DNA from: Clostridia bacterium
GTDB lineage: Bacteria > Bacillota > Clostridia > Lachnospirales > Anaerotignaceae
Reading direction: 5' to 3'
Length of the DNA stretch: 64,000 nucleotides
Assembly (NCBI GenBank): GCA_022786605.1
Contig: JALFWW010000018.1
Span: forward strand, 7,558-71,557
How positions within the stretch are numbered: the first letter of the stretch is position 1; every line of letters begins with the position of its first letter. Below the pieces are notes generated by a model. It was given only the letters and a program-made list of their open reading frames with translations. It searched no databases and was not told where the DNA came from. A program made the translations under genes and the position numbers. Shown piece by piece: positions 1 through 15,789 of the stretch.

Positions 1-1946
1 CCGGTGAATGTACTGCCGTCCACACGCAGTTCCACAATGCCGTCCGCTGCCAGCGCACCGCCATAAGCCGCACGGTTTCCGCGGAATGTGGTATCTCTTA
101 CGGTCACTTTCACAGGGGTTTCGGATTTGCTGTTGCTGATATAGACCGCGCCGCCGCGTCCCGCGGCTTTGTCTGCTCCTGCCTGAAGAACATTGTTCTC
201 AAATGTGCAGCCAATGATGTTGACAACGGGAGGTTTGCCACCGTCATAAATATACAATGCGCTGCCGCCATCTGCCTCACCGGCATTCTGGGCTTTCACA
301 CCTTTTACTGTCACATTGCGGAAAGTGATCTCCGCTCCGTCTTTTACAGTGAATATCCCATTCTGTTTCCCAGAGAAAGATGCGCCGTCCAGCACCATAT
401 CTTTGATTTCCATACCTGTGGCAGCACCGTCTTTGCCATCCACCAGGAAAGAGAGCGCTCCATCTGCCGTAAGGGTATGCCCGCCGCCGTCCAGCACCAA
501 ACCTTTTGTCTGGATGGATACTCCATGGGAATCGGCTGCGGTGATGTTCTCCTGCAAACGGATGGTGTCGTCTTCCTTTGCCTTTTCCAGCGCCTCTGTG
601 AAACCCTTCCAATCGGACACAGTATGCACTTCTCCTCGTTTAGAAGAACTGCTGGAACTGCCAGAGGAATGCTTCTTCTCTTTGGCACCGATTTCCTTTT
701 CTTCGGTTTTCTTTTCTGTAGTCACAGATGTTTGGGGCTGTACTTCTTTTCCGTTCGCCTGAACGTCAGACACATTTTCCCCTGCTGTGACTTTTGTATT
801 TTCCGTAGAAACCTGTATATGGTCTTCGTTGGCATATACTTCCGCAACGATGCCTGTACCGCCAACCTGAGTTCCCTGGGCTTTCGCTTCCACTTTGGAA
901 ACTGCACCATCTTTTTCCACTTGAATTTTAGCGTTTTCCGCGCCTTCCTGTATCTGGATGGTATCTACTTTCCCTTCTTCCAGCGTCAGGACCGCTGTTT
1001 TGGAAACCGCAACATTTTCAAAATCACCGGATAATTTTGTGTCACTTTGCAGATTCACAACCCCCAGATGGCTGTCCACTGCCGTGATGGCAGCAGTCTG
1101 TACTGGATTGGCTGCCAGCACCCCTTTGCCGGTACTGCTTTTGGAAAGTTCCACACCTTCAGCGCCGCCGCGGATCAAAATTCTGCCTTCTACATTCACA
1201 CGATCCAGCTGCACCGCATCAGCACCATCAGCAATGATCAAATCCCCTTTGACCGTCACATTATCCAGCACTGTATCGCCTTTTCGTACAATCAGGTTGC
1301 CTTCCACTGTGGAATCTGCTGTTTTGCCTTCTTCCGCGATGTTTCCTGCCAAATGATAGAGCACCTGAGAAAATTCCGCTCTGGTAATGGGTGAAAGAGG
1401 ATCAATCTGTCCATCATTACCATGGATATAGCCCGCCTGTGCCATGGCTGCCACAGCACCCTTTGCCCAAGACGCGATCTGCTCACTGTCCGCATATTCC
1501 TGCAGCGCGTCTGGATTGCCCTGCTCCAGGCAATAAAATCTTGCCAGCACCGCAAACACTTCCTGTCGGGTAATGGGTGCCTCCGGTCGCAGCAGACCAT
1601 CGCCGCCTGTAAAAGTACCCATCTGTACAGCCTTTGCCATATCTTCATAATACCACGCGGACGCTGGCACATCTTTGTATTCGGTGAGCGAAGCCCCTTT
1701 CGCCGCACCGGCAAGACGATTGAGTATCGCTGCCATTTCTGCCCGCTTTAATGTATCATTGGCACGAATCCTCCCATTGTCCCCGCTTAGTAAGCCATGA
1801 CTAACTGCATGAGATAATGAATCTGTTGCCCAATTATTTGGAAAATCCACAAAGTCCGTTGGTGAAGCCGCAAATACCGGTGTCGGTATGGCAATGGACG
1901 CTGCCATCAATGCGGCCAGGACTTTTTTCTGGTGTTCTTTTCCCAT
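1..1946 (-). CDS. SLH-domain cell-surface protein with C-terminal beta-helix (pectin-lyase/Pmp-like) region; 3' end runs off the window
   Basis: Missing from the ORF track because it is open to the edge. Manual translation from ATG 1946 (RBS AAGGAGTG): MGKEHQKKVLAALMAASIAIPTPVFA signal, three SLH repeats (LKRAEMAAILNR, ITRQEVFAVLAR, ITRAEFSQVLY), later GGSALYI/GGAVYI/FENN/FRGN repeats. Confidence 0.85.
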   Translation of the reverse strand, partial: MGKEHQKKVLAALMAASIAIPTPVFAASPTDFVDFPNNWATDSLSHAVSHGLLSGDNGRIRANDTLKRAEMAAILNRLAGAAKGASLTEYKDVPASAWYYEDMAKAVQMGTFTGGDGLLRPEAPITRQEVFAVLARFYCLEQGNPDALQEYADSEQIASWAKGAVAAMAQAGYIHGNDGQIDPLSPITRAEFSQVLYHLAGNIAEEGKTADSTVEGNLIVRKGDTVLDNVTVKGDLIIADGADAVQLDRVNVEGRILIRGGAEGVELSKSSTGKGVLAANPVQTAAITAVDSHLGVVNLQSDTKLSGDFENVAVSKTAVLTLEEGKVDTIQIQEGAENAKIQVEKDGAVSKVEAKAQGTQVGGTGIVAEVYANEDHIQVSTENTKVTAGENVSDVQANGKEVQPQTSVTTEKKTEEKEIGAKEKKHSSGSSSSSSKRGEVHTVSDWKGFTEALEKAKEDDTIRLQENITAADSHGVSIQTKGLVLDGGGHTLTADGALSFLVDGKDGAATGMEIKDMVLDGASFSGKQNGIFTVKDGAEITFRNVTVKGVKAQNAGEADGGSALYIYDGGKPPVVNIIGCTFENNVLQAGADKAAGRGGAVYISNSKSETPVKVTVRDTTFRGNRAAYGGALAADGIVELRVDGSTFT

Positions 1947-2033
1947 GTTTGTATCACTCCTTTTCTTTTGTTGTACATAAACCAATGCCTTTTTCCCAAT
2001 TTATCCCCGTTTTGGGAAATCGTTTCCGCCCAT

Positions 2034-2090
2034 AAGTTAGCTTATGCTAACTTGCGTATCCAATATATCATGTCCGACATTTCTTGTCAA
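2034..2090 (-). promoter_or_regulatory. sigma70 promoter with palindromic operator for the SLH gene
   Basis: TTGACA (2085-2090), 17 bp, TATATT (2062-2067) with extended TG; perfect inverted repeat AAGTTAGC-ttat-GCTAACTT at 2034-2053. Confidence 0.65.
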
Positions 2091-2155
2091 TAATAGAATC
2101 CGCATTCCTTTTATCAGACAAAAAGCGAACAGCAATGACTGCCGTTCGCTCAAAA

Positions 2156-3172
2156 TCATCCTTTCCATATCGCTATAGGGTCTTTTGTCTGTGGCGTATA
2201 AATATCCCGCAGCCCTTCTGTGACCAGTATTTTTCCCTCATCCGTCATCATCACCGCGTCAAACAGCCCTTTGTGTTCCTGCCAAAAGGTTTCTGCTTTT
2301 TCCGGTCCCATGATAAAAAGTACCGTAGAAAGGGCATCCGCCAATGTGCCATCCTCACTGACAATGGTCACGGAAAGAAAGCCGTTTTCCGCAGGATATC
2401 CTGTTCTGGGGTCGATGATATGATGATACAGCTTACCGTTTTCTGTAAAATTACGCTGATATCCGCCAGAAGTGATAACTGCTTTATCTGCCACCTCCAA
2501 AACGCCAAAATATCCCTCGGGATTTCTTGGATCTTCCAAAGCGATCCGCCATAGACTGCCGTCCGGTTTCGTTCCCAATGTCTGCACATTTCCTCCCAAG
2601 GAAACAATACCGGAGGAAACGCCTGTTTCCCCATAAATTTCCATAATACGCTGAGAGGTGTATCCCTTGGCAATTGCCCCCAGATCAATGGTCACCCCAT
2701 CCAGCAGCGTGATGGTGTTTCCCTCAATGCGTATTTTGGAACCATCCACTTTTTCCAGCTGTTCCGCCAGTTCCTCTGCCGATGGCACACGGAAATTGCC
2801 GTCACGGAACCCCCATATCTTCATGACCGGAGCGATGGTGCAGTCAAAAAGCCCTTCTGTTTCCTTGGACACTTCTGCCGCTTTGGAAATAACAGCAAGA
2901 GTGTCTGGCTCCACCTGTCTTTGTCCCCTTTGATTCAGCTGATATACATCTCCTTTTTCACCGCTGACAGAGAGCAGTTCATCCAATCGCTGTACTTCTT
3001 TGCCTGCCGCCTTTACAGCCATTTCTGATTTTTCTCCATAGGCGCTGAGTGTCATATAAGTGTCCATGGCAAATATTTCTTCTTTGTAATGGGCAGGTTC
3101 CGCTTCTGATGGGCTGTCGCAGCCCCCCAGCAACGTGGCGCAGCAACATACCGCCAATACTATTTTTTTCAT
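2156..3172 (-). CDS. apbE: FAD:protein FMN transferase lipoprotein (ApbE)
   Basis: Lipobox LGGC; motifs FAMDT, IDLGAIAKGY, SLGGN, TSGGYQR, HHIIDPRTGYP, ADALST. Confidence 0.93.
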   Translation of the reverse strand: MKKIVLAVCCCATLLGGCDSPSEAEPAHYKEEIFAMDTYMTLSAYGEKSEMAVKAAGKEVQRLDELLSVSGEKGDVYQLNQRGQRQVEPDTLAVISKAAEVSKETEGLFDCTIAPVMKIWGFRDGNFRVPSAEELAEQLEKVDGSKIRIEGNTITLLDGVTIDLGAIAKGYTSQRIMEIYGETGVSSGIVSLGGNVQTLGTKPDGSLWRIALEDPRNPEGYFGVLEVADKAVITSGGYQRNFTENGKLYHHIIDPRTGYPAENGFLSVTIVSEDGTLADALSTVLFIMGPEKAETFWQEHKGLFDAVMMTDEGKILVTEGLRDIYTPQTKDPIAIWKG

Positions 3173-3387
3173 GATTTCTTTCCACCTCCAGATTGTTAGT
3201 TATAACTAACTGCTTGAGACAGCATATCATTTCTGTATTTACCTGTCAATATCCTGAGCAGACAACAAAAAAGATATGCGCCCCAAAGTTTCATTCAGAA
3301 ACAAAAAAACATTTTCTGAATGATCCCTTCTACAACGCATATCTTTATGATTCTCAAAAAGTGGAAAAGGGGCATTTTCATGATTTA

Positions 3388-4158
3388 TCAGCAGGAAACC
3401 AGTTCCAGAACGCCTCTGATATCCTGTACCACATAATCCGCGCCAGCCGCGAAATAAGTTTCTGTTGCTTTCTTGCATGCCGCTTCTTTTTCTTCTTTGG
3501 ACATGCTTTCGTATTCTGTCTGTGTCAGACCCAATACAGAACTGCCTTCAATGATACCTACAGCAACCATGCCTGCATTTTTGCCTTCTTTGATATCAGC
3601 TACAGTATCACCAACTTTCATGACTCTGGAAACATCCTGCAATTTCAGGGCTTCCATGTTTTTGAAAATCATGTACGGGAAAGGTCTGCCACATTTGCCT
3701 ACAGCGTCAGGGCTGAACCAGCAGTCAGGAGCGTATCCTTTTTCTTTTGCCTTTGGAATGACCACTGCCATCATTTCATTGGTGTATCCTGTAGTAGAAC
3801 CAATTTTTAAGCCCATTTCACGCAGTTTTTGGATGGTTTCTACCACATAAGGCTTGGGTTCCGCAAAACGGCTGAGGATTTCCATGATCTTCTTTTCGAA
3901 GAGTTCATAAACACGCTGTACGTCATCCTCTGTCCAATCTCTGCCCTGTTTTTCTTTCCACAGGTCATGGATTCTATCCATGGAAAGCATGGTGCGGATA
4001 TGGTCGATCTTCAGCATGCCCATGGGTTTGCGCACTTCTTCCAGTGTGGGTGTGATGCCGAATGTTTCAAATGCTTCCACAAATGCCTGCACAGGTGCAA
4101 AGCTGCCATAATCTACGGTTGTTCCAGCCCAGTCAAAAATAATTCCGTCAAATTTCAT
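3388..4158 (-). CDS. phnX: phosphonoacetaldehyde hydrolase (phosphonatase)
   Basis: FDWAGTTVDYGS HAD motif I, PMGMLKIDHIR Schiff-base Lys, KVGDTVADI; adjacent to phnW. Confidence 0.95.
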   Translation of the reverse strand: MKFDGIIFDWAGTTVDYGSFAPVQAFVEAFETFGITPTLEEVRKPMGMLKIDHIRTMLSMDRIHDLWKEKQGRDWTEDDVQRVYELFEKKIMEILSRFAEPKPYVVETIQKLREMGLKIGSTTGYTNEMMAVVIPKAKEKGYAPDCWFSPDAVGKCGRPFPYMIFKNMEALKLQDVSRVMKVGDTVADIKEGKNAGMVAVGIIEGSSVLGLTQTEYESMSKEEKEAACKKATETYFAAGADYVVQDIRGVLELVSC

Positions 4159-5252
4159 GCCTTTTTCTCCTCCACATAACTTCTGAAAATTTCACACAGT
4201 TTTTCCATGTCTTCCTCATAGATTTCACCGATATGACCGATACGGAATGTTTCCGCGTCTGTCAGTTTACCAGGATAGATGGCATAACCGCGGTCTTTGA
4301 TATACTGATACATTTCCCCGAAATCGTAATGGGTGTTTTCAGGATAATAGAATGTAGTGATGATAGGTCCCTGTGCTTCCCCTTCGATGAAAGGTTTGAA
4401 GCCCATTTCGCCCATGTGTTTTACCAGATAATCTTTGTTGTTTTTATAGCGTGCATGTCTTGCGGGAATGCCGCCTTCCGCATCCAGTTCTTTCAGTGCC
4501 TGCCAGAATGCCAGCACCACATGGGTGGGAGAAGTGAAACGCCATTTGCCGTCTTTGTGCATGGTTTCCCACTGGTCATACAGATCCAGAGAAAGGCTTC
4601 TTGCTTTGCCTTTGCTTTCCATGAGTTTGTCTGTGCGGCAGATAATGAAGGAAAAACCGGGCACGCCCTGAATACATTTATTAGCGCTGCTGATGATGAA
4701 GTCAATGCCCCATTCCCCTACAGGAATGTCTACGCCGCCAAAGCTGCTCATGGCGTCTACGATCATGGTCTTGCCTGCTGCTTTCACAACCTTTGCCACG
4801 GAAACGATGTCATTGAGGATACCGGAAGTGGTTTCGCTGTGTACCATGGAAACGTGTGTCACCTGAGGGTTTTCTTCCAGCAGTTTTGCCACTTTTTCCG
4901 CGGAAGGCATCTGGTCATAAGGTTCATCGTACATGATGTAGGAAATGCCTGCGTGTTTTGCAATGTCGCCCATACGTTTGCCGTATGCACCGTTGGCACA
5001 GATCAGCAGTACATCGTCTTTGCCGATGACGCTGGTCAGTACGGATTCCACACCGAATGTGCCGCTGCCCTGCATGAGAACAGTGGTGTATTCCGGTTCA
5101 GAAACGTGTGCCAGTTCCAGCAGTTTTTCGCGGATGGCACGGGTGATTTTCTTATAATCTTCATCCCATGTGCAGTGGTCGTCCATCATCTGCTGTTTTA
5201 TAGTAGCGGTCGTGGTCAAGGGACCGGGTGTCAGTAATTTATAATGTAACAT
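4155..5252 (-). CDS. phnW: 2-aminoethylphosphonate--pyruvate transaminase
   Basis: LLTPGPLTT, GSGTFGVE, HSETTSG, DAMSSFG, SSANKCIQG (PLP Lys), WRFTSPTH. Confidence 0.95.
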   Translation of the reverse strand: MLHYKLLTPGPLTTTATIKQQMMDDHCTWDEDYKKITRAIREKLLELAHVSEPEYTTVLMQGSGTFGVESVLTSVIGKDDVLLICANGAYGKRMGDIAKHAGISYIMYDEPYDQMPSAEKVAKLLEENPQVTHVSMVHSETTSGILNDIVSVAKVVKAAGKTMIVDAMSSFGGVDIPVGEWGIDFIISSANKCIQGVPGFSFIICRTDKLMESKGKARSLSLDLYDQWETMHKDGKWRFTSPTHVVLAFWQALKELDAEGGIPARHARYKNNKDYLVKHMGEMGFKPFIEGEAQGPIITTFYYPENTHYDFGEMYQYIKDRGYAIYPGKLTDAETFRIGHIGEIYEEDMEKLCEIFRSYVEEKKA

Positions 5253-5298
5253 GTCTATACTCCTTCAAATTTCTTTCTTTTATCAACTTTCTAAATGC

Positions 5299-6318
5299 TT
5301 ATTTGCAGCTTTCGGACAGTGCCTGATGGCTTTCCAGCAGTTCTACAGTCAGAGGTTCCGCAAATGTCTTAGGATATGCGGACGCGTTTTCGGAAGATGT
5401 TGTTTCTCCTTCATACAGTGCGTTAGGGTAGTATTTCTGTAATTCGCTTCTGCCGTTTTCAATGATGCACTGTGCCATTTCCTGTGCCAGAGGGTTTGTA
5501 GCGTCGCCTTTATCTACAACTGCAACGGATTCTGTCAGAGAGAAGTTGCCTTCTGTAGGGTCAACATAGTTGATGGGCAGACCTTCTGCTTTATCCGCAA
5601 CTGCCTGCTGACGCAGACCGAAACCGATAGCAACTTCACCGGCACGTACTTTTTTCAGAGGTGCGGAACCGGAACTTTCGATGTGAGGACCAGCATTTTC
5701 ATAAATAGCTGTCAGCACTTCTTTCGCGCCTTCTTCCCCATATTCGCTTACCAGTGCCTGAATCAGCAGCCATGCTGTGGAAGAGCTCTTGATGTCTGTC
5801 ACAGAGATCATATCTTTATAAACGGGATTTGTCAGGTCTTTCAGGCAAGTAGGCATGGGCAGGTTGTTTTCCGCTAGCATTTCTGTGTTGACGATGATGG
5901 CGCCTTCCTGAGATGTAATGGGTGCGCAGTATGTTTTTTCACTGCCGTCCAGCAGTTTGTAAGTGAAATTCAAATCCTGGAACATGTTCTGCTGTTCCTG
6001 TGCGCTGTCTACATAAAATGTGCTCAGTGTAATCAGGTCCGCTTCAATGTTTGTGCCTTCTGCCAGCACTTTGCCGCCCAGTTCGGATGTACCGAATGTC
6101 TGGAACATATACTGATTGGCATAACCATTTGCGTCCAGTGTTGCTTTCATGGCTTCCACAGCCTCGTCATCCGCGTTGGAATAAATGATGACCTGTTCGC
6201 CGGAAGATGCGCCGCCGTCAGCGGTTTCTTCTGTGCCGCCGCCGCAGCCAGTCATTGCCAGTGCAGAAAGGGTCATAACCCCTGTCAACAGTAATGCCAA
6301 AGTTCTTTTCTGTTTCAT
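5299..6318 (-). CDS. ABC transporter substrate-binding lipoprotein (probable 2-AEP uptake)
   Basis: Lipobox MTGC; iron/thiamine-type SBP features; co-transcribed with phnWX. Confidence 0.8.
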   Translation of the reverse strand: MKQKRTLALLLTGVMTLSALAMTGCGGGTEETADGGASSGEQVIIYSNADDEAVEAMKATLDANGYANQYMFQTFGTSELGGKVLAEGTNIEADLITLSTFYVDSAQEQQNMFQDLNFTYKLLDGSEKTYCAPITSQEGAIIVNTEMLAENNLPMPTCLKDLTNPVYKDMISVTDIKSSSTAWLLIQALVSEYGEEGAKEVLTAIYENAGPHIESSGSAPLKKVRAGEVAIGFGLRQQAVADKAEGLPINYVDPTEGNFSLTESVAVVDKGDATNPLAQEMAQCIIENGRSELQKYYPNALYEGETTSSENASAYPKTFAEPLTVELLESHQALSESCK

Positions 6319-7955
6319 TGTTCTTTCTCCTTTTTCTTGTTTTCTCTTTTTATTACATACCCCAGAATGCCTTTTACAATCAGGTTGGTTCCAAGGATAA
6401 ACAGCGATAATACAAATACTTCATTGAATTTTGTGTAGTACTGCAATTCTTTGATCTTTGTGGTCAGCACCATGGTTCTCGCCCCTGCGATGAAGATGAC
6501 CGCGCTGACAGTTACCATAGCGTTTACAAAGTAGTAACTGAATACTTCCAAAATGGTGGATTTCATATTGGGCGTGACGATTCGCACAATGGTTTTCATC
6601 CATGTATCACCCATAAGAGATGCGGTGGTTTCCCATGAGCTGTTCAGCTTTTCCAGGGAATTTTTCATCATCAGATAAGGTGTGGAAAAGAAGTGTACCA
6701 CGTTACAAAAAATCATCAGCCAGAATGTGTTCTGCAAAGGTGTGCCGGAAAAAATCAGCATGTAAGCAATACCGATGACCATACCAGGAATGGTGTTGGT
6801 GATGAGGGCAATGCTGTTGATGATGCCTTTCCAGCGGTGTTTCATACTGCTTCGTGCTGTTACCAGTGCAGCCCCATAAGTGATGAGCAGCCCCAGCACC
6901 GCTGTCAGCACTGCCACAAAAATGGAGTTTCTGTATACCATAGTCAGACTGTTGTCATTGAGGACTGCCTGCAAATGTTCCAGTGTAAAAGATGTTTGGT
7001 AAGGCCATTCTTCCACAAAAGGCACCACGAAGATGACCAGGAAGATGGATACCAGCACCAGCAGGATGATGCCGGAGATGATGCCGCAGAACCAATCCCG
7101 CAGGGGATTTTTCTGCAGTTCGATGGTTGAAATTTTGTTATAGCGGATGTTATACCGTTCCAGATACCGCAGAAGTACGATACTGATGACGGAAGGCACC
7201 AGCATCAGCATGGCTACCACAGCCCCCTGCTGGAAGTCCGGGATACTGCCCAGCATTTCGTTGTAAAGCACCGTTGCCACCACATCGTATTTGCCCCCTA
7301 CGGAAGCGGGAATACCATAATCCGTAAAGCAGAGGAAGAAACACTGTACGATGGATGCCGCCAGTGTGCCCAACAGCGGACGGAATACCGTCTGGAAAAA
7401 TGTGGTAACGCCGTTGTCTCCCATGACTCTGGAAACCACCATAAATTTCTTGTCGATATACCCCATGGTGTTGAGGATCAGCAGGAAGGAAATGGGCAGT
7501 GTGTAGATCACATAGCCAAAAAGCAGACCGCCGAAACCATAGATATCAAAAAGCTGTGTGCCCATGAGCTTTGTCAAAAGCCCCTGTTTCCCAAAGGAAT
7601 AAATGATGGCAAAGCCGTATGTAATGGTGGGCAGCAGCATTGGCAGCACTGCCAGCAGGCGGATAAGCTTTTTATATTTCGCCCCTAAGTTCGTATATTG
7701 GATGCTGTAGGCAAGGAAAAACGCCAGCACCGTGGAAATGACCGCACTGGTCATGGAAATAACGATGCTGTTGCCGAAGGCTTCCGCAAAGCCTTTTCCT
7801 GTCAGCACATCGGCATAATTTCCAACGCCCCATCCTGTATCCAGCACAAAGGATTCTCCCAACAGGCGGATGATAGGAACCGCTAAAAACGCCGCAAACA
7901 GTAAGATGGTCACGGCATAAATGACTTTGATTTCTTTTTCTTTCCGTACTACCAT
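6315..7955 (-). CDS. ABC transporter permease, fused double TMD (probable 2-AEP uptake)
   Basis: 546 aa, about 12 TM segments, two EAA-like loops; overlaps the SBP gene. Confidence 0.85.
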   Translation of the reverse strand: MVVRKEKEIKVIYAVTILLFAAFLAVPIIRLLGESFVLDTGWGVGNYADVLTGKGFAEAFGNSIVISMTSAVISTVLAFFLAYSIQYTNLGAKYKKLIRLLAVLPMLLPTITYGFAIIYSFGKQGLLTKLMGTQLFDIYGFGGLLFGYVIYTLPISFLLILNTMGYIDKKFMVVSRVMGDNGVTTFFQTVFRPLLGTLAASIVQCFFLCFTDYGIPASVGGKYDVVATVLYNEMLGSIPDFQQGAVVAMLMLVPSVISIVLLRYLERYNIRYNKISTIELQKNPLRDWFCGIISGIILLVLVSIFLVIFVVPFVEEWPYQTSFTLEHLQAVLNDNSLTMVYRNSIFVAVLTAVLGLLITYGAALVTARSSMKHRWKGIINSIALITNTIPGMVIGIAYMLIFSGTPLQNTFWLMIFCNVVHFFSTPYLMMKNSLEKLNSSWETTASLMGDTWMKTIVRIVTPNMKSTILEVFSYYFVNAMVTVSAVIFIAGARTMVLTTKIKELQYYTKFNEVFVLSLFILGTNLIVKGILGYVIKRENKKKEKEQ

Positions 7956-7958
7956 GAT

Positions 7959-8723
7959 TTATACCGCCTGTGCCATGATTTCCTGATGGAACAATGCAAA
8001 AATGTTATTGCGTTTGATTTCCAGCTGATTCAGGATGAATTCTTTGATGAACGCGTTCTGAGGTGTGGTGATGATTTCTTCCGGTGCGCCATACTGAGAG
8101 ATGGAACCATCGTTGACGATGAGCACTTTATCGGACAGTGTCAGGGCTTCTTCGGGATCGTGGGTAACGATGATGGTTGTCAGATGGTAATCTCTGGCGA
8201 TCTGTTTGATTTTTTCTTTGATGGATTCTTTGATGACACCATCCAGTGCGCTGAGGGGTTCGTCCAGCAGCAGGATCTTCGGTTTCATCACCATGGTTCT
8301 TGCCAGCGCCACTCTCTGTTTCTGACCGCCGGAAAGCCGGTCGATTTTTTTGTTCAAATGAGGTTTCAGACCCAGCAGTTCGATCAGTTCGTTCACTTCT
8401 TCCTGTGTGGAAATGTTAGGTGTATTTTTCAAGCCGTAAGTAATGTTCTGCATGACATTGAGATTGGGGAACAGGGCATAATCCTGAAATACGATGTTGA
8501 AGCCGCGTTTTTCCATGGGCACGTTTTTGATGTCCTGTCCGTCAAAAATGATCTTGCCGCTGTCCGCCTCTGTCAGACCCAGAATCAGATTCAGCAGTGT
8601 TGTCTTGCCGCAGCCGGAAGGACCTAAAATGGAAACGATCTCGCCATCGGAAATGGTCAAATCAATGTTTTTCAGTATAGTTGCACCGTCATAAGACTTT
8701 TTGATGTTTTTCAGTTCTAACAT
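7959..8723 (-). CDS. ABC transporter ATP-binding protein
   Basis: Walker A GPSGCGKT, LSGGQ signature, LLLDEP Walker B, VTHD. Confidence 0.93.
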   Translation of the reverse strand: MLELKNIKKSYDGATILKNIDLTISDGEIVSILGPSGCGKTTLLNLILGLTEADSGKIIFDGQDIKNVPMEKRGFNIVFQDYALFPNLNVMQNITYGLKNTPNISTQEEVNELIELLGLKPHLNKKIDRLSGGQKQRVALARTMVMKPKILLLDEPLSALDGVIKESIKEKIKQIARDYHLTTIIVTHDPEEALTLSDKVLIVNDGSISQYGAPEEIITTPQNAFIKEFILNQLEIKRNNIFALFHQEIMAQAV

Positions 8724-9094: not shown

Positions 9095-12000
9095 TTAATT
9101 CAGTTTCAGATACTGTGCCCAGTCACGATCAGGCAGAACGTCTGTCCATGTTTCATAAACACCGTCTTTGTCCTTTTCGTATTCATGGCTGCTGGTCGCT
9201 TCCTGGATTGCCAGATAGTACCATGCAGTTGTATCCATGTTGTCAGGGAACACATTCATATCTTCATGCAGCGCGTCCGCATCTTCAGGCAGACGATTCA
9301 GCACACGGTTGATCATAGTCACCGCTTCCGCACGGGTAATGTAACGGTCGGGACCAAATGTGCCGTCGGGATAACCGCTGATCCAGCCTTTTTCTGCCGC
9401 ACGGTTGATCTGGTTTGCTGCCCAGTGACCGTCAATATCGCTGAACAGGTTTTCGCCGCTGTAGCCTTCGCTGTCAAAACGTGCCGCGATAGCCGCGAAT
9501 TCCGCACGGGTGATATAAGCGTTGGGATCAAAGCTGTTGTTATCTCTGCCGTATACGATATCCATATCGTACATGGTGGATACAGCCACATTGAACCAAT
9601 CGTCTGTAAATACGTCGTTGAAAGGATTCTGATCTGTCAGATTCTTTTCTCTGACATCATCCTGCAGCAGACGGAAGAAGATGGACGCTACTTCCGCACG
9701 GGTGATGTTGCGTTCGGGATGAACCAGACCATCGGAGTAACCAACCACATAATCAAAGTGATCGTCACCGTTCAATGCTTCCGGTGTTTTGTCGGGTTTA
9801 TTGTTGGGTTTGTGACTGCCGCCGCCACCGGAACCGCCGCCATTGTCTTTCACAAAGACAGCTTTCAGTACAGCACCGGGGATGTCACTTTCATCCATTT
9901 CATACTTGTCCACAGCGCCCAGATTCTTTGTTTCTTTGCCGATGGTAACTTCTACTCTGTCCAGTTTCCAGCCATCGGCTGCTTCCATTTTGAATTTCTG
10001 TTTGTCAACGCCATAAGGAATTTCTACAACTTGTGTTTCATTTGCACCAATGGTATCCACGTCTTTTACAACGACCTTACCCTTCCCCTCAACAATGACT
10101 GTCATCAGGTGTTCTGTTGTACTGCCGCCGCCTTTGACTTCATAAGTCAATTTAGGCACAGGGAATGTTTCGGTGCTGCCTACTGTACCATTGGAATCCA
10201 CAGGTGTCAGAGTGGCTACTACGTTGGTTTTTACGATGTATGTGCCTTTTGTTGTCTGAGGATTTGTCAAGTGTACATCGTAGGAGAACTGCACAGGGGC
10301 AAAGTTGCTGACAGGCACATTGATGTCCCAAACAAAATGTTCACGGGTTTCGCCGTCTGCGTCAGCCACACCTTCGGGATAATAGGTTACAACAAAATCG
10401 TAACGACCATCTGCTGTTGCACCTTTGAAGAAACCATAAGTGGTGCTTCCTTCAGGAAGTTCAGCAGATTTAATTTCTTCTTTATTCAGTGTTACTTTAT
10501 TCTCATATTTACCAACAGTAATGGTCATATTTTTCAGATTTACAACATCAAAGTTGTAGTCATTGCCCTTATTGTCTTTGCCCTGACCGATGATGTCGAC
10601 AACCTGAGAGCCTTTAGCCAGCAGGTAGTAAATGTCATTCTGGATATCATCAAAACTTACTTCTTTACCATCTGCCAGATAGGTCATAAAAGCATGACCC
10701 CAAGGATGATCTTGAACACTAGTATTTCCTAATACCGCATAGCAATGGTATTTTTCACTCAATTCGTGGTACAGTTTTGCTGTTTTATACAGTGCAACGT
10801 CGACCGTAGTGGGAAGCACTGTATTACCTTTTGGAATGTGATTATTTTTATCCATACCCTCATAAGGCTGAATATATTCTTCCACTGCACTATAATGATT
10901 TTCTACATCCTGTAAATAGGTATTCCAATTACTAGGAATAAACTGATCTCCACCCTCTAAGTAATGACGGATGCTCCAGCAGTCAGGTCCAGCCATAATT
11001 TGATTTTCACCATTTGTTGCCTGCTGAGAATTGATGGCCTGAGCAGGTTCATCAAACATATAGGTGATACCGTCGCTGACAAAAATCACATGTTTTCTGC
11101 TGTCTTCTACATCTGTATCCGCAACCAGCATTTTCTGTGCTGCCAAAAGACCCGCATGGGTATTGGTGCCGCTGGAGATTTTCTGTGTGATTGCAGCTTC
11201 AATATCATCATACTCGGTTACCAAATCTTTCCATTCAGTTACATGTGTTTCTTTGTTGAAGATTACAACGCCAACTTTTACGGTTGCTCCATCTTCTTCT
11301 GCTTTCTTCTGCAGGTCTTTCAGCATATCCAGTGCCTGTGTTTCCACAGTATTGCTTGTGGATTTATCCAGTACGAATACCACATCAGAAACCAGTTCTT
11401 CTTGCGCGGAAGGCAGAGAAAGGGTCACTGTGGAGTTGTAATTGCTGTCCAGTGGTGTTGCTTCTTTATTCTTGGAATGATCCCATGTAGGAGGTTCGGG
11501 GGGATCAACAGGGTCTTTTTCTGTCAAAACGCCGTCCAGATGGAAAGCGGGCTGCAGTTCTTCATCATTTGCGTTTACTTTGTAGCTTGCGCCGATGTAG
11601 CTGAGTTTCTGCCATGTGAAATCATAATTTTCATTGGTGTATGTATTGTTACCGATTTTGAAGATAAATTCTGTGACATTCCCGCTTTCATCCATTGTCC
11701 ATTCGCTGCCTGTTCCGACAGGTGCGCTGGAAACTACGTCATAATCTTCATGGGTGCCCAGTGGTTTCAACTGATTCCAGTTTTCAATCTGCTTCTGGGC
11801 AGCCTCACCTGTATAAGCCTGTTCTGTACTGGTGCCTGCTATTACTTTTGCGCCAGTTGCCAGATAGGAATAATCTTCGGGATTTTCTGTTACATCACCG
11901 TCTGTATAATTCAGTACATACAGGAATACAGGCAGTTTTTCTTCCGGTTCTGTGGGGTCAACAGGACCGCCGAATGCCCATACCGCATAGACAGTTACAG

Positions 12001-13486
12001 GAACATCTGCAACATCAACTTCTTGGATGATTGTACCTTCCGGTACTTCGTTTGCGGAGTTAAAAATATTTGTCTGGGTTGTACTCCATCCCCGGAATTC
12101 AACTTTTTTATCGCCCTCAGGAGCATGGGTAGGACCTTCTGTTTTCAGGGTTGCTGGAGCATTTTTCGGTACATTTACAACTACATTGCTACCTTCGCCA
12201 CCATTTGCGTCATAGGTCAGTGTAACTGTATCTGCTCCAGTGCCTGGAATGATAACAGTAGGATCACCAATCTGTTCCTTTGGAATTGTCTGATCATGAT
12301 CGTTAGAATCTTTATATTTCAAAGTAACATCCTTATTTGTTTTATACTCTGTATCCTGTTCAGATGTCACAATGGGTTTCACTTTAAATGTTGCAGTAGC
12401 TGTTTCTGCTGGAATATCACCAATTTCCCATGTTACCACACCATTTTTTACAGAAATTGTTCCTGTTTGAGTTTCTGCACTACCTTCTACATACTCGAAA
12501 GCATCTGTATTGATGACATCGGTCATGACAGCACCTTTACCAGCAGACACTGTATTGATTTCTCCTGCCCATTTTTTCAGAAGTTCTTCCAATTCAGATG
12601 CATAATTTGCGCCTGTTACATTCTGGTAGTGGTTATCACTTGCCAAGCTTTCCAAATAGTCATCTGCTTCATTATCCAATGCAATCCCGATGGTATACAG
12701 CTGATAGCCTGCGGCTTTGATTGCTTCCGCCTGTTCGGAACCATCCCAATTGGGATCACCAATGGAACTACCCTGCTTACCAGGCGCACCATCGGAAATG
12801 AATACAACATAGCCGGGGCGAGTTTGATCTTCTCTGTCATTCAGCATACTATAAGCTTCCTGCAGTGCAGAAGTATAGTCTGTACCACCGTCAGCATTCA
12901 TTGCATTCAATGTATTCTCTACAGCTGCAACATCTTTTGTCAAATCCTGCCGTTGACGAATGGCATCTACAGATTCGAACCAATCCCGCTGTGTATGCGC
13001 AAAGCCAATCACTGCCATCTGGTTATCATTTTCGCCAGACAGAATGCTGTCAGCAAAGGTCTTACCAACTTTTTTTGCTGTATCAATTCTGGGTTCTTTT
13101 CCTTTTTCCCCGGTACAAGATTTAGGTACAAGCCAACCAGTTAAACCTTGATAATATCTTGCTCCGCATTCAGGGCATTCTACCAAGCCCCAACCTGCAC
13201 TTTTAAATTCAGAACTAGGGGTTTTACAAGGTTCCCCAACACTGGATGCCATACTGCCGGAGTTATCCACCACCAGTACCACATCCGCTTTGGAAGCGGT
13301 AGACTGTGTCACAGGATCGCCCTGTACCGTCATGGTGATTGTGACTTCACCAGTGTTTTCGTTATACGTTGCTGTTTTAGACGCTGTCACATCCCCTTCC
13401 TTCGCCATTGCCGTCACAGGCAACAAGCCGCACAGCATGACGAATGTCAACAGGAAGCTCAGCGTCCGCTTCACTTTGTTTCTCAT
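9095..13486 (-). CDS. large SLH-anchored adhesin with two vWA modules and a Listeria/Bacteroides-type repeat
   Basis: Signal peptide; VVLVVDNSGS and VVFVLDKSTS MIDAS motifs; TLTYDANGG...FRGWS...VTVYAVW repeat; three C-terminal SLH repeats (ITRAE x3). Confidence 0.88.
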   Translation of the reverse strand: MRNKVKRTLSFLLTFVMLCGLLPVTAMAKEGDVTASKTATYNENTGEVTITMTVQGDPVTQSTASKADVVLVVDNSGSMASSVGEPCKTPSSEFKSAGWGLVECPECGARYYQGLTGWLVPKSCTGEKGKEPRIDTAKKVGKTFADSILSGENDNQMAVIGFAHTQRDWFESVDAIRQRQDLTKDVAAVENTLNAMNADGGTDYTSALQEAYSMLNDREDQTRPGYVVFISDGAPGKQGSSIGDPNWDGSEQAEAIKAAGYQLYTIGIALDNEADDYLESLASDNHYQNVTGANYASELEELLKKWAGEINTVSAGKGAVMTDVINTDAFEYVEGSAETQTGTISVKNGVVTWEIGDIPAETATATFKVKPIVTSEQDTEYKTNKDVTLKYKDSNDHDQTIPKEQIGDPTVIIPGTGADTVTLTYDANGGEGSNVVVNVPKNAPATLKTEGPTHAPEGDKKVEFRGWSTTQTNIFNSANEVPEGTIIQEVDVADVPVTVYAVWAFGGPVDPTEPEEKLPVFLYVLNYTDGDVTENPEDYSYLATGAKVIAGTSTEQAYTGEAAQKQIENWNQLKPLGTHEDYDVVSSAPVGTGSEWTMDESGNVTEFIFKIGNNTYTNENYDFTWQKLSYIGASYKVNANDEELQPAFHLDGVLTEKDPVDPPEPPTWDHSKNKEATPLDSNYNSTVTLSLPSAQEELVSDVVFVLDKSTSNTVETQALDMLKDLQKKAEEDGATVKVGVVIFNKETHVTEWKDLVTEYDDIEAAITQKISSGTNTHAGLLAAQKMLVADTDVEDSRKHVIFVSDGITYMFDEPAQAINSQQATNGENQIMAGPDCWSIRHYLEGGDQFIPSNWNTYLQDVENHYSAVEEYIQPYEGMDKNNHIPKGNTVLPTTVDVALYKTAKLYHELSEKYHCYAVLGNTSVQDHPWGHAFMTYLADGKEVSFDDIQNDIYYLLAKGSQVVDIIGQGKDNKGNDYNFDVVNLKNMTITVGKYENKVTLNKEEIKSAELPEGSTTYGFFKGATADGRYDFVVTYYPEGVADADGETREHFVWDINVPVSNFAPVQFSYDVHLTNPQTTKGTYIVKTNVVATLTPVDSNGTVGSTETFPVPKLTYEVKGGGSTTEHLMTVIVEGKGKVVVKDVDTIGANETQVVEIPYGVDKQKFKMEAADGWKLDRVEVTIGKETKNLGAVDKYEMDESDIPGAVLKAVFVKDNGGGSGGGGSHKPNNKPDKTPEALNGDDHFDYVVGYSDGLVHPERNITRAEVASIFFRLLQDDVREKNLTDQNPFNDVFTDDWFNVAVSTMYDMDIVYGRDNNSFDPNAYITRAEFAAIAARFDSEGYSGENLFSDIDGHWAANQINRAAEKGWISGYPDGTFGPDRYITRAEAVTMINRVLNRLPEDADALHEDMNVFPDNMDTTAWYYLAIQEATSSHEYEKDKDGVYETWTDVLPDRDWAQYLKLN

Positions 13487-13559
13487 TCTCTCACTCCTTC
13501 TTCATTTATGGTGCAGCAATGGTCCTGCACCCACGCCCCGCATCCATAGGCAGGGCTTC

Positions 13560-13616
13560 TCACACAAACACTGTTCTGTCCAAGCAAATGGCATGCTCAG
13601 ACACATTTCTTTTCAC
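13560..13616 (-). CDS. putative 18-aa leader peptide upstream of the adhesin
   Basis: AGAGGAGG RBS then GTG-KRNVSEHAICLDRTVFV-TGA, followed by two hairpins before the adhesin RBS. Confidence 0.35.
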   Translation of the reverse strand: MKRNVSEHAICLDRTVFV

Positions 13617-13846
13617 TTCTCTCCTCCTCTCTTCGAAAACAAGCGCCCCTTTCATGTATACAGAAAACAAAAACATGCCTCCCGTCATATTCTTTCTAGA
13701 GTCGCTTCCTGCTTCTTCTTGCCGATTGTCATCTTTGGTATGGGCTTCCTTTTCTGTCAGGAAAACCATGTATCAAGACAGGATTTCGTTAACAGAAAAC
13801 ATGCGCTGTATCTGTCAACAGTTCCTGATCTTATCGCTTGTTTGCC

Positions 13847-14656
13847 TTATTGCTGTTCCCAGCCTGTCATCATTTCCTCTGCCTCTAAAAGCTTGTCATA
13901 ATACTGCAAAAGCAGCATTGCCACATTATCCTGCAGCTGGGTCTGGGTTTGTTCGTAAAGTCTGAGCAGACATCTTGGATTTGCCTTTTCCGGCGCCACA
14001 TCCGCTATGTGGCACAGCTGCTTCATGGCTGCGTTGACGGTGATACGATGGATGTCCGTTCCTTTTTGCGAACGGAAGATACGCCCTTCTAAAATGTCAT
14101 TGCGCTTGCAGTAATCCAGCAATTCCCGCTGAAAGGTCTTGGGGATGGCAATTTTCCGTTCCTGCCCATTGCTGTGAAAAACGCCGCTGCCTTTTTTCAC
14201 AATATTCACTGTCAGTTCCGGCAGTTCCCAAATATGTAAACCCAAAACACAAATGGACTTGATGATAAAATAAAGCTGTTCTTTTTTCTGCTGTTTTGCC
14301 GCCTGCAGCAGACGAATATACTCGCTGCGCTGCAATACTGTCTGGGCGGTATCCTCCAAAGGCACACAGGACACCTGCCAGTTCCTTTCTCCCATAAATT
14401 CCAGATACTGATTCACCACTGCCAGCCTGCGATTGATGGTGCGTACTGCCAGAACCCCTTCCTGCTGCATGGCAGATTTCCACTCCTGGAGCGTATTTTT
14501 TCGAATCATGTCATCCGGCAAAAAATCATGCTGGAATTTCAATAAAATCCGGCGGTATTCCGCAATGGTCTCCGCTTTATTGCCGGCGTCTGTTTTTTCC
14601 TGTAAAAATGCTTCTATGCTTTCTCGCGTAAATTTGATTTCTTCCATATTTCTCAC
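13847..14656 (-). CDS. tyrosine-recombinase-like protein lacking catalytic residues
   Basis: Clear paralogue of 14941-15789 (LQRSEYIRLLQAAKQQKKEQLYFIIKSIC vs LTRAEYSRLVRTAERKGKERLSLLIQTIC); GLHIWEL replaces GIRVSEL, ANPRCLLRLY replaces VFPHNLRHLF, no LGH/TTxxY motif; ORF intact. Confidence 0.8.
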   Translation of the reverse strand: MRNMEEIKFTRESIEAFLQEKTDAGNKAETIAEYRRILLKFQHDFLPDDMIRKNTLQEWKSAMQQEGVLAVRTINRRLAVVNQYLEFMGERNWQVSCVPLEDTAQTVLQRSEYIRLLQAAKQQKKEQLYFIIKSICVLGLHIWELPELTVNIVKKGSGVFHSNGQERKIAIPKTFQRELLDYCKRNDILEGRIFRSQKGTDIHRITVNAAMKQLCHIADVAPEKANPRCLLRLYEQTQTQLQDNVAMLLLQYYDKLLEAEEMMTGWEQQ

Positions 14657-14756
14657 TCGTTATAACGAAATTCCCCTTCTGTCATACTTTTTTACGAAGA
14701 ATCGAAAAAAATCTAGGGATCGGTTCTCCGCGTCTTCTTTTTTCCACGTAAAAATT

Positions 14757-14828
14757 AAAAAAACATCAAAATAAAGCCGAAAATATATTTTTTTTGCAAA
14801 AATTATCGTTTCGGTTTTATTTTGATGT
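14757..14828 (-). terminator. hairpin plus U-tract inside the inverton
   Basis: ACATCAAAATAAAGCCGAAA (14763-14782) pairs with TTTCGGTTTTATTTTGATGT (14809-14828), 19/20; followed by a T-run on the minus strand; loop is long (26 nt). Confidence 0.55.
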
Positions 14829-14834
14829 CATCAC

Positions 14835-14863
14835 TTGCTATCGTATGTAAAAAGTGTTATATT
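14835..14863 (+). promoter_or_regulatory. sigma70 promoter inside the inverton, currently facing away from the adhesin
   Basis: TTGCTA (14835-14840), 17 bp, TATATT (14858-14863) with extended -10 TG at 14855-14856. Confidence 0.7.
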
Positions 14864-14940
14864 TGAAATGTAATACTTTCGTATTTTATATGATTATATA
14901 TGTGATACAATCTGATTTTTATGACAGAAGGGGAATTCTG

Positions 14941-15789
14941 TTATAGAACGAGGCCCATGCGTTCCAGTTTCTGACGATGGACGCGCCCGCTTTCCATAAT
15001 ATAGATTCTTGTGGTTTCAATATTGCTGTGTCCCAGCATATCCGCCAGTTTTGCAATATCTTTATCCAGACTGTAAAAAATCCGCGCAAACAGATGGCGC
15101 AGGTTGTGTGGGAATACTTTCTTGGGATTCACCTCTGCATCTTTGCAGAGTTTTTTCATTTCTGCCCAAATATTCCCCCGATGCAGGGGGCGTCCGCTTC
15201 TTGTAACAAATAAAATGCCTTTGGAAATACCGTTCTTTGCCGCATAGGCCTTCAGTTTTTTCTGCAGACGGACCGGCAGAAAAATCACCCGTCGTTTTCC
15301 CTTGCAATTGACTTCCGCTCTGCCCCGTTTGACTGCCTCCAATGTGATGAACTGCAGTTCAGAAACACGTATGCCTGTGGCACAGATGGTCTGTATCAGC
15401 AGGGAAAGACGTTCTTTGCCCTTTCTTTCCGCTGTACGCACCAGTCTGCTGTATTCTGCCCGTGTCAGTTCTTTTTCTTCACTGATAAATATTTCTTTTT
15501 GAATTTTCAATAACTTCATACGCAGATCATGTCTGCCCAAAAACGCAAACAGTCCATTGGCTGCCACCAATTTTCCATTGACCCCTGCGGGGCTGTATGT
15601 TTTTTCCAAATTTTCTTTCCATAACAGCAGGTCTTCTTTTCTGACTTCTTTTCCTGCCAGAAATTGTTCCAGCTCCCGCAGTTCTCTTGCGTATTTCTCT
15701 AAAGTTCCTTTGCTTTTCTCCTGTATTCTCAAAAACTGTAAATAAGATACTACGATATTTTTCGTCACAACGATCTGTTCCATCGTCAA
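14941..15789 (-). CDS. tyrosine recombinase (probable invertase)
   Basis: Complete catalytic set: TGIRVSEL (R), CKGKRR (K), PHNLRH (HxxR), LGH, TTRIY (Y); stop codon lies in the outer arm of the right site. Confidence 0.92.
   Translation of the reverse strand: MTMEQIVVTKNIVVSYLQFLRIQEKSKGTLEKYARELRELEQFLAGKEVRKEDLLLWKENLEKTYSPAGVNGKLVAANGLFAFLGRHDLRMKLLKIQKEIFISEEKELTRAEYSRLVRTAERKGKERLSLLIQTICATGIRVSELQFITLEAVKRGRAEVNCKGKRRVIFLPVRLQKKLKAYAAKNGISKGILFVTRSGRPLHRGNIWAEMKKLCKDAEVNPKKVFPHNLRHLFARIFYSLDKDIAKLADMLGHSNIETTRIYIMESGRVHRQKLERMGLVL

Follow-up and report, generated by a model that had tools for sequence, protein, structure and literature searches.

Invertible promoters are the main route of surface variation in gut bacteria. 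In fimS of Escherichia coli (FimB/FimE) and in the RecV switches of Clostridioides difficile, a short promoter segment is bounded by inverted core sites and served by an adjacent tyrosine recombinase, the genes controlled encode surface structures, and the recombinases concerned are all catalytically active; FimE acts mainly in ON cells. To our knowledge, where switch bias or memory comes from outside of E. coli fim is largely unknown. In Bacteroides fragilis, the phase-variable capsule operons start with genes for UpxY, a NusG-like antiterminator, and UpxZ, its inhibitor. Among Xer-type proteins, a streptococcal XerD-like protein (NCBIfam NF002685) encoded beside scpAB is conserved despite the loss of active-site residues. 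MrpR (YopR), the master repressor of SPbeta-like phages, has a tyrosine-recombinase fold in which three of seven catalytic residues are kept (PMC10516654), and a plasmid protein, T1FR, not reported as recombinase-related, binds fimS and locks it OFF (PMC13712751).

The locus described here is built like the fim and RecV switches and, as with FimE, appears to tie a recombinase-family protein to the ON state. Unlike FimB, FimE and RecV, however, the second family member lacks an active site, and unlike the arrangement in the fim and RecV invertons it lies downstream of the switch, by which its synthesis would be controlled; we refer to it as the pseudo-recombinase. Like UpxY and UpxZ, it is encoded by the first gene behind the invertible promoter of a surface operon and would be an ON-locus product that may act on sister loci, but those proteins have no recombinase fold, and a Pfam search of the pseudo-recombinase, whose fold is that of a recombinase, found no NusG-type NGN or KOW domain. 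Like the streptococcal protein, it is Xer-type and conserved after active-site loss, although it differs in its inverton setting, and it scored 20.5 bits against the NF002685 cut-off of 178. As a non-catalytic protein that may bias an invertible switch it would resemble T1FR, which is plasmid-encoded in trans and locks OFF rather than ON (PMC13712751). MrpR and SroF likewise reuse the recombinase fold without recombination (PMC10516654; bioRxiv 10.1101/2025.11.27.690993; PDB 9rd5), but MrpR, which still has the Tyr and Lys, is a phage repressor acting on repeated operators, whereas the pseudo-recombinase has lost the Tyr-bearing segment and most of the basic surface; its family is chromosomal, is paired with an active sister enzyme and, having no sequence match to either protein, is of independent origin. 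The literature searched, whose coverage is incomplete and does not prove novelty, yielded no account of a catalytically dead recombinase within an inverton.

The window, by which we mean the whole stretch of 64,000 nucleotides analyzed, lies on C13, one of 25 contigs in a 2.26-Mb assembly that is 89% complete. Near-identical DNA is present in pig-gut metagenomes from eight studies, and among named relatives Anaerotignum lactatifermentans DSM 14214 is the closest at this locus. The pseudo-recombinase gene (13847..14656, minus strand) is open throughout, with no stops, and encodes 269 aa from a GTG at 14656; the ATG at 14647 (266 aa) is the probable start, since gene callers and a conserved GAGTGAG ribosome-binding site favor it. 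BLASTP aligns the protein with the product of the neighboring gene (14941-15789, minus strand) at 28% identity over 250 residues (E 5e-34), a match that spans the N-terminal as well as the catalytic domain, and on this alignment the pseudo-recombinase is a full-length paralogue of the neighboring tyrosine recombinase. The neighbor, with a likely ATG at 15783 (280 aa), has the full R-K-H-R-H-Y set in the motifs ATGIR, CKGK, HNLRH and LGH..TTRIY.

In the pseudo-recombinase, alignment places VLGLH opposite ATGIR (Arg I to His), SNGQ opposite CKGK (Lys to Asn) and PRCLLR opposite PHNLRH, and the LGHSNIETTRIY of the recombinase gives way to a tail with the end LLQYYDKLLEAEEMMTGWEQQ. The R-K-H-R-H-Y positions are thereby occupied by H, N, R and L and then by tail residues (Asp and Met by signature), and no Tyr aligns with the nucleophile in alignments with active recombinases. 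PF00589 scores 13.0 bits on the pseudo-recombinase, below the cut-off of 27.1, against 89.0 for the neighbor; PF02899 falls marginally under its own cut-off (21.8 vs 22.3), and an NCBIfam scan gave nothing near a cut-off, the best being XerA at 60 against 220. With the catalytic set absent and the profile cut-off missed, the pseudo-recombinase, as judged from its residues, is outside the definition of an active tyrosine recombinase (PF00589). Its parts are a core-binding-like N-terminal domain, a catalytic-domain scaffold without catalytic residues, the NPRCL motif and a long C-terminal helix ending G-W. A first-pass annotation made from the letters alone had anticipated much of this: its alignment of the core-binding region and catalytic scaffold with the neighbor, its intact frame without stops or frameshifts, and each of its listed substitutions (R to H, KG to NG, HNLRH to RCLLR, loss of the LGH..TTRIY tail) were all recovered, and its helical acidic tail agrees with the conserved acidic helix, ending G-W, that replaces the Tyr-bearing segment and is modeled as part of a helix at residues 227-264.

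An AlphaFold2 model built with 120 relatives as input reached a pLDDT of 94.8, and the tail ending LLQYYDKLLEAEEMMTGWEQQ forms part of that single helix, 227-264. Foldseek matched the model to XerA (3e-9), XerD and, at TM 0.62-0.66, the lambda and Tn1549 integrases (lambda Int in its DNA-bound form); the phage repressor SroF (9rd5) appeared at lower ranks as a weak match (E 7.5e-4, TM 0.52, 16% identity). In a profile search of PDB sequences the nearest entries were Xer-type enzymes (XerC-like, XerA, XerD), and neither MrpR nor SroF was matched. The predicted structure keeps both domains of the recombinase fold, the helical core-binding domain and the scaffold of the catalytic domain.

The surface of the protein has changed more. 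The net charge is +0.9 for the pseudo-recombinase vs +26.0 for the recombinase (family medians +4 vs +22), and of 32 basic positions conserved in active recombinases nine are still basic in pseudo-recombinases and 23 are lost; neither the basic linker between the domains nor the hairpin lysines remain, and six new conserved basic positions have been gained. DNA binding is doubtful because the net charge is about +1 vs +26. The first-pass proposal that the gene had been repurposed as a DNA-binding regulator therefore divides: repurposing stands on the clade-wide loss and the selection described below, and the DNA-binding part is weakened by the retention of 9/32 basic positions and the drop from +26 to +1. 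Together these losses move the balance from a plain DNA-binding regulator toward action through the recombinase, with a narrower DNA contact possible, and the loss of the basic linker and of 23/32 basic positions together with the gain of the acidic G-W helix makes a protein-level mechanism plausible. Complex prediction for the recombinase and pseudo-recombinase, both supplied as alignments, scored 0.00 and was uninformative either way.

Between the two genes lies the switch. One inverted repeat adjoins the recombinase gene (14920..14945, 26 nt), whose stop codon falls within it, and is 92% complementary to the other, which adjoins the pseudo-recombinase gene (14661..14686, 26 nt). The former has a 10-6-10 core-site layout (TATGACAGAA, GGGGAA, TTCTGTTATA), and exact matches to the repeat arms near the locus are confined to the two repeats; the latter ends 14 nt 5' of the ATG and therefore lies within the 5' UTR of the ON-state transcript. 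The invertible core between them (14687..14919) measures 233 bp, the whole repeat-bounded segment 285 bp, and the window carries the OFF orientation. Among nine loci that encode the identical protein, the core is oriented as in the window in L027 and L023 and inverted in L018-L022 and L026; counting these nine fetched loci and the window, six of ten sequences from this species are ON. In the assembly graph of run X13 the unitigs break at the repeats (14678/14661 and 14949/14920). The segment 14687-14919 inverts, and both orientations exist among assemblies encoding an identical pseudo-recombinase.

The best promoter of the switch (14835..14863, plus strand; TTGCTA-17-TGtTATATT) faces away from the pseudo-recombinase in the window's OFF orientation, running antisense into the recombinase gene, and faces the pseudo-recombinase in the inverted orientation (L018). 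Relatives have extended -10 promoters at the matching relative position, near one end and firing outward across the repeat, and the same layout is found in invertons of this recombinase family that have no pseudo-recombinase. A terminator-like hairpin with a U-run (14750..14828, hairpin 14763-14828, minus strand; -24.6 kcal/mol, z -5.9) stands in the OFF orientation on the sense strand, 3' of the recombinase gene. At the other end of the invertible segment a second terminator, which would face the recombinase gene once the switch is ON, is clear in L018 (2735-2800) and L030 (1040-1105), each with a hairpin and U-rich tail, and would there block read-through from the recombinase gene; in the window's allele it is not clear, being present in a degenerate version (z +0.4).

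The sole promoter able to drive the pseudo-recombinase is the one on the invertible segment, which faces the gene in one orientation. From this promoter location, the terminator behind the recombinase gene and the occurrence of both orientations, we infer that the pseudo-recombinase is made in ON cells only and that its presence marks the ON state; by this layout it would be the first gene turned on when the promoter flips ON. The tie to the switch drawn in the first-pass annotation is upheld by this position directly behind an invertible promoter that faces the gene only when ON.

This genome has three such switches, the window's and two on contigs C21 and C5. The C21 locus (G000:C21:138500-152500, 2510-8599) is a second full cassette of recombinase, repeats, pseudo-recombinase and a 1382-aa ORF, its pseudo-recombinase 57% and its recombinase 74% identical to those of the window. 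Its repeat arms are almost identical to the window's and its spacer differs by one base (GGGAAA vs GGGGAA), so that the two recombinases may bind each other's sites without recombining them. The C5 inverton (G000:C5:76000-90000) comprises a recombinase (6081-6926, minus strand), perfect 20-nt repeats 254 nt apart (5789-5808 and 6063-6082) and a 1630-aa ORF (898-5790, minus strand). It has no pseudo-recombinase and offers a natural comparison for judging the contribution of the additional gene. Across assemblies, invertons with the pseudo-recombinase are ON in 6/31 cases (6 ON, 25 OFF) vs 6/20 (6 ON, 14 OFF) for those without it, and no strong ON-lock is visible in these orientation counts, which are a crude measure.

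The pseudo-recombinase has many relatives. A word-index search returned 64, and a full phmmer scan gave 1632 matches among 50%-identity clusters, 144 of them below 1e-30, from which we set the size of the clade at no fewer than 144 clusters at 50% identity. Among species-representative genomes, a scan yielded 80 loci, often with three to five copies per genome, in Anaerotignum, Oscillospiraceae (Oscillibacter, Lawsonibacter, Intestinimonas), Lachnospiraceae (Acetatifactor muris DSM 23669) and Butyricicoccaceae. A quick tree was built from 49 pseudo-recombinases, their 49 neighbors, one further recombinase of this genome and, as outgroup, a Xer-like sequence; it places the pseudo-recombinases together in one group (SH-aLRT 100, stem length 2.46), and on this tree they are one old clade of single origin. 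The pseudo-recombinase and active subtrees mirror each other in internal branching, and the pairwise distances of the partners correlate (Mantel r 0.80, 0/2000 permutations as high), although linkage alone could explain both.

Across this clade, the nucleophile-column Tyr is absent in 187/190 aligned members, and the three that have it are active recombinases. The Arg I, Lys and nucleophile-Tyr positions vary within the family and the other catalytic positions carry new conserved residues: FPHNLRH has become NPRCL(R), and where the Tyr-bearing segment was there is now a helix that contains Q-x-Y-D-x-L-L-E-x-E and almost always ends in G-W; Tyr129 and Lys133 are new family-wide residues, Tyr129 being invariant in 120 members. 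An identical pseudo-recombinase protein is encoded on at least 24 independent contigs from different samples. Against orthologues at 80-85% identity its dN/dS is 0.11-0.16 at dS 0.68-1.0, vs 0.045 for the neighboring active recombinase; the pseudo-recombinase is therefore constrained, yet evolves two to three times faster than its partner. Full-length copies reach down to 30-35% identity. In one relative (L105, 5905-6816) the gene is broken into two ORFs at a stop, so some copies decay. Since the catalytic loss is ancient, clade-wide and under purifying selection, the gene has been repurposed and is not decaying. The first-pass view that the loss was targeted rather than decayed is borne out by dN/dS, by the 187/190 members without the Tyr and by the confident fold; the conserved catalytic loss and dN/dS below 1 that it proposed looking for among homologues were both found, and the mostly truncated or neutrally evolving homologues that would have spoken against it were not.

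The architecture of the locus recurs. Among the 63 informative loci, those with at least 1.4 kb of upstream sequence, an active recombinase adjoins the pseudo-recombinase in 47, ending 275-505 nt before it. Counting four further loci whose recombinase is truncated at the contig start, inverted repeats with at least 16 matched nt were found in 38/51. The repeat nearer the recombinase begins at the stop codon of that gene and its partner lies 5-150 nt 5' of the pseudo-recombinase, with an inter-arm spacing of 203-343 nt (median 232.5); a spacing of exactly 233 nt, found in three loci, was considered as a family constant and rejected in view of this range. Of 79 contigs, eight stop no more than 260 nt upstream of the pseudo-recombinase, as do the metagenome contigs L007, L008, L016, L024 and L025, which is what an assembler does at a segment of mixed orientation. 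The recombinase is not adjacent in 16/63 loci, and some copies lie mid-operon; at L083 a second, partial pseudo-recombinase-like ORF (9161-9691) is also found mid-operon. All five genomes tested that hold such orphan copies have an active family member elsewhere, and such a member is present in only 101/401 sampled genomes of the class, with up to six copies; the comparison is suggestive of dependence on a recombinase, with the reservation that the genomes are kin and not independent.

Behind the pseudo-recombinase lies a conserved, structured leader of 360 nt (13487..13846, minus strand), part of the ON-state transcript, followed by the cargo, a surface adhesin of 1463 aa (9095..13486, minus strand) with two VWA domains, a GBS104-like Ig domain and three SLH repeats. 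The leader folds better than shuffled sequences (z -3.8) and has 12 pairs with compensatory changes among seven Anaerotignum orthologues, including a long-range helix; no Rfam family matches it or anything else in the window. The leader may act in cis as a regulatory RNA for the adhesin gene, and the 69-aa ORF called in it by some pipelines looks spurious. A third core-like site in the leader (TGACAGAA..GGAA, 13746-13768) was rejected, as it lies within a hairpin and is not conserved in orthologues. Elsewhere in the family the cargo consists of adhesins (SLH with VWA, LRR or Listeria-Bacteroides repeats), pilus-like proteins with sortase, or glycan operons (glycosyltransferases, RmlA-like, epimerase genes, Wzz, CpsB), and in several loci the pseudo-recombinase gene overlaps the start of the next gene, which therefore has no space for a second promoter. 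An activator or antiterminator specific to the adhesin, suggested in the first-pass annotation, loses ground against cargo as unrelated as SLH adhesins, pili and glycan operons and against the overlaps.

The reading we favor, tentatively and at somewhat less than an even chance, is that the pseudo-recombinase is a non-catalytic modulator of inversion, made in the ON state only, that acts through the recombinase or the repeats and is probably an inhibitor. With its synthesis restricted to ON cells, the protein would serve as a marker of the ON state and feed back on inversion, either by entering mixed assemblies with the recombinase that are unable to finish strand exchange or by sitting on the repeat sites. 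The most likely outcome would be a slower ON-to-OFF flip, by which the ON state would gain memory, and possibly slower flipping also at sister switches with near-identical arms. An inhibitory ON-state feedback is favored because a subunit without a nucleophile adds no catalysis but can spoil a tetramer or block a site, and the role appears to be tied to the switch rather than to the cargo because the gene keeps the same place before unrelated cargo, is descended from the enzyme of the switch itself and, where orphaned, shares its genome with an active member in the five genomes tested. Counting against the modulator reading are the 16/63 loci without an adjacent recombinase, the copies found mid-operon, the commonness of gene-free invertons and an ON share that is not raised.

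In a stronger form, which we consider unlikely, the clade would be a widespread, undescribed "anti-recombinase" family. In many gut Clostridia the earliest ON-state product of every phase-variable surface operon would then be a dead invertase copy that poisons the active enzyme as well as the near-identical sister enzymes of other switches, so that an ON locus would hold itself ON and freeze its rivals. If true, heritable memory and the expression of one adhesin or capsule at a time would come from a pseudoenzyme instead of from DNA asymmetry.

A sequence-specific transcription factor with a recombinase fold, of the MrpR/SroF kind, is a similarly doubtful alternative; it would control the downstream operon or, as in UpxZ-type cross-regulation, loci in trans. 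MrpR is a precedent for a tyrosine-recombinase fold that acts as a repressor (PMC10516654), SroF structures are among the fold matches, some copies have no recombinase nearby, and the six new conserved basic positions could serve such a role. Set against these are a net charge near zero, the lack of arm-like sites near the locus beyond the two repeats, the failure of the candidate third site in the leader to be conserved, the heterogeneous cargo with its gene overlaps, and the lack of any sequence-level link to MrpR or SroF.

Less probable again is a non-catalytic role outside the switch, in chromosome or DNA-structure handling or in defence, with the gene merely riding on a phase-variable promoter. 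One quarter of the loci are not beside a recombinase, as such a role would allow, but the strict and recurrent position as first gene behind the repeat across families of Clostridia and the co-occurrence with active family members argue against it.

We regard as about equally improbable a FimE-like helper of the ON-to-OFF flip, an ON-only protein that stimulates or steers the sister recombinase and makes the ON state short-lived. The ON-only expression logic would suit it, as would the mostly OFF orientation of pseudo-recombinase-containing invertons in assemblies (25 OFF vs 6 ON); however, the OFF excess is equally marked without the gene (14 OFF, 6 ON), 6/10 sequences in the window's own species are ON, and a subunit without a nucleophile adds no catalysis.

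In tyrosine recombinases the Arg pair and the Tyr are essential, and it is very improbable that the protein is a still-active recombinase using another nucleophile: the invariance of Tyr129 in 120 members and the Y-Y in the tail of the window's protein offer candidates, but that protein has also lost both active-site Arg along with the Lys and the two His, the residues at the Arg I, Lys and nucleophile-Tyr positions differ among family members, and the tail Tyr is not conserved. A decaying duplicate without function, for which a few split relatives such as L105 might speak, is the least probable reading and is already contradicted by the conservation data, namely dN/dS of 0.11-0.16, full-length copies down to 30-35% identity, new conserved motifs and a confidently predicted fold.

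Under the modulator reading, a pseudo-recombinase that is under selection and made only when ON would make switching state-dependent in a simple and general way, and would give bacteria a further instance of a pseudoenzyme in control of an active paralogue. Members are present in cultured strains, which puts the idea within direct experimental reach; these include Anaerotignum lactatifermentans DSM 14214, Acetatifactor muris DSM 23669, Oscillibacter valericigenes and Agathobaculum ammoniilyticum. Public records name family members "hypothetical protein" or "tyrosine-type recombinase/integrase", and recombinase or integrase labels on these proteins overstate the numbers of mobile elements and active invertases.

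Most invertons of this recombinase family, including the C5 inverton of this genome, have no pseudo-recombinase. In a profile search of 401 genomes of the class, none of the best 29 loci outside this genome was a pseudo-recombinase; all were active. Repeats were found at 24 of these 29 loci (L032-L060), where the recombinase gene ends at a repeat of the ACATAAT-N6-ATTATGT type, followed by about 200-290 nt (range 164-430) with an outward-facing extended -10 promoter. By gene and repeat layout, they are a large, uniform class of cis-encoded invertons in Clostridia. At a second locus of A. lactatifermentans DSM 14214 (L068, 4852-5705) the active recombinase is in two overlapping ORFs and the pseudo-recombinase is intact; the switch of this cassette, which belongs to a cultured type strain, may be locked. 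At L071, the plus strand upstream (~5670-5990) resembles the C-terminal helix-turn-helix of a small serine recombinase at the place where the tyrosine recombinase is expected, and the cassette may have a swapped invertase.
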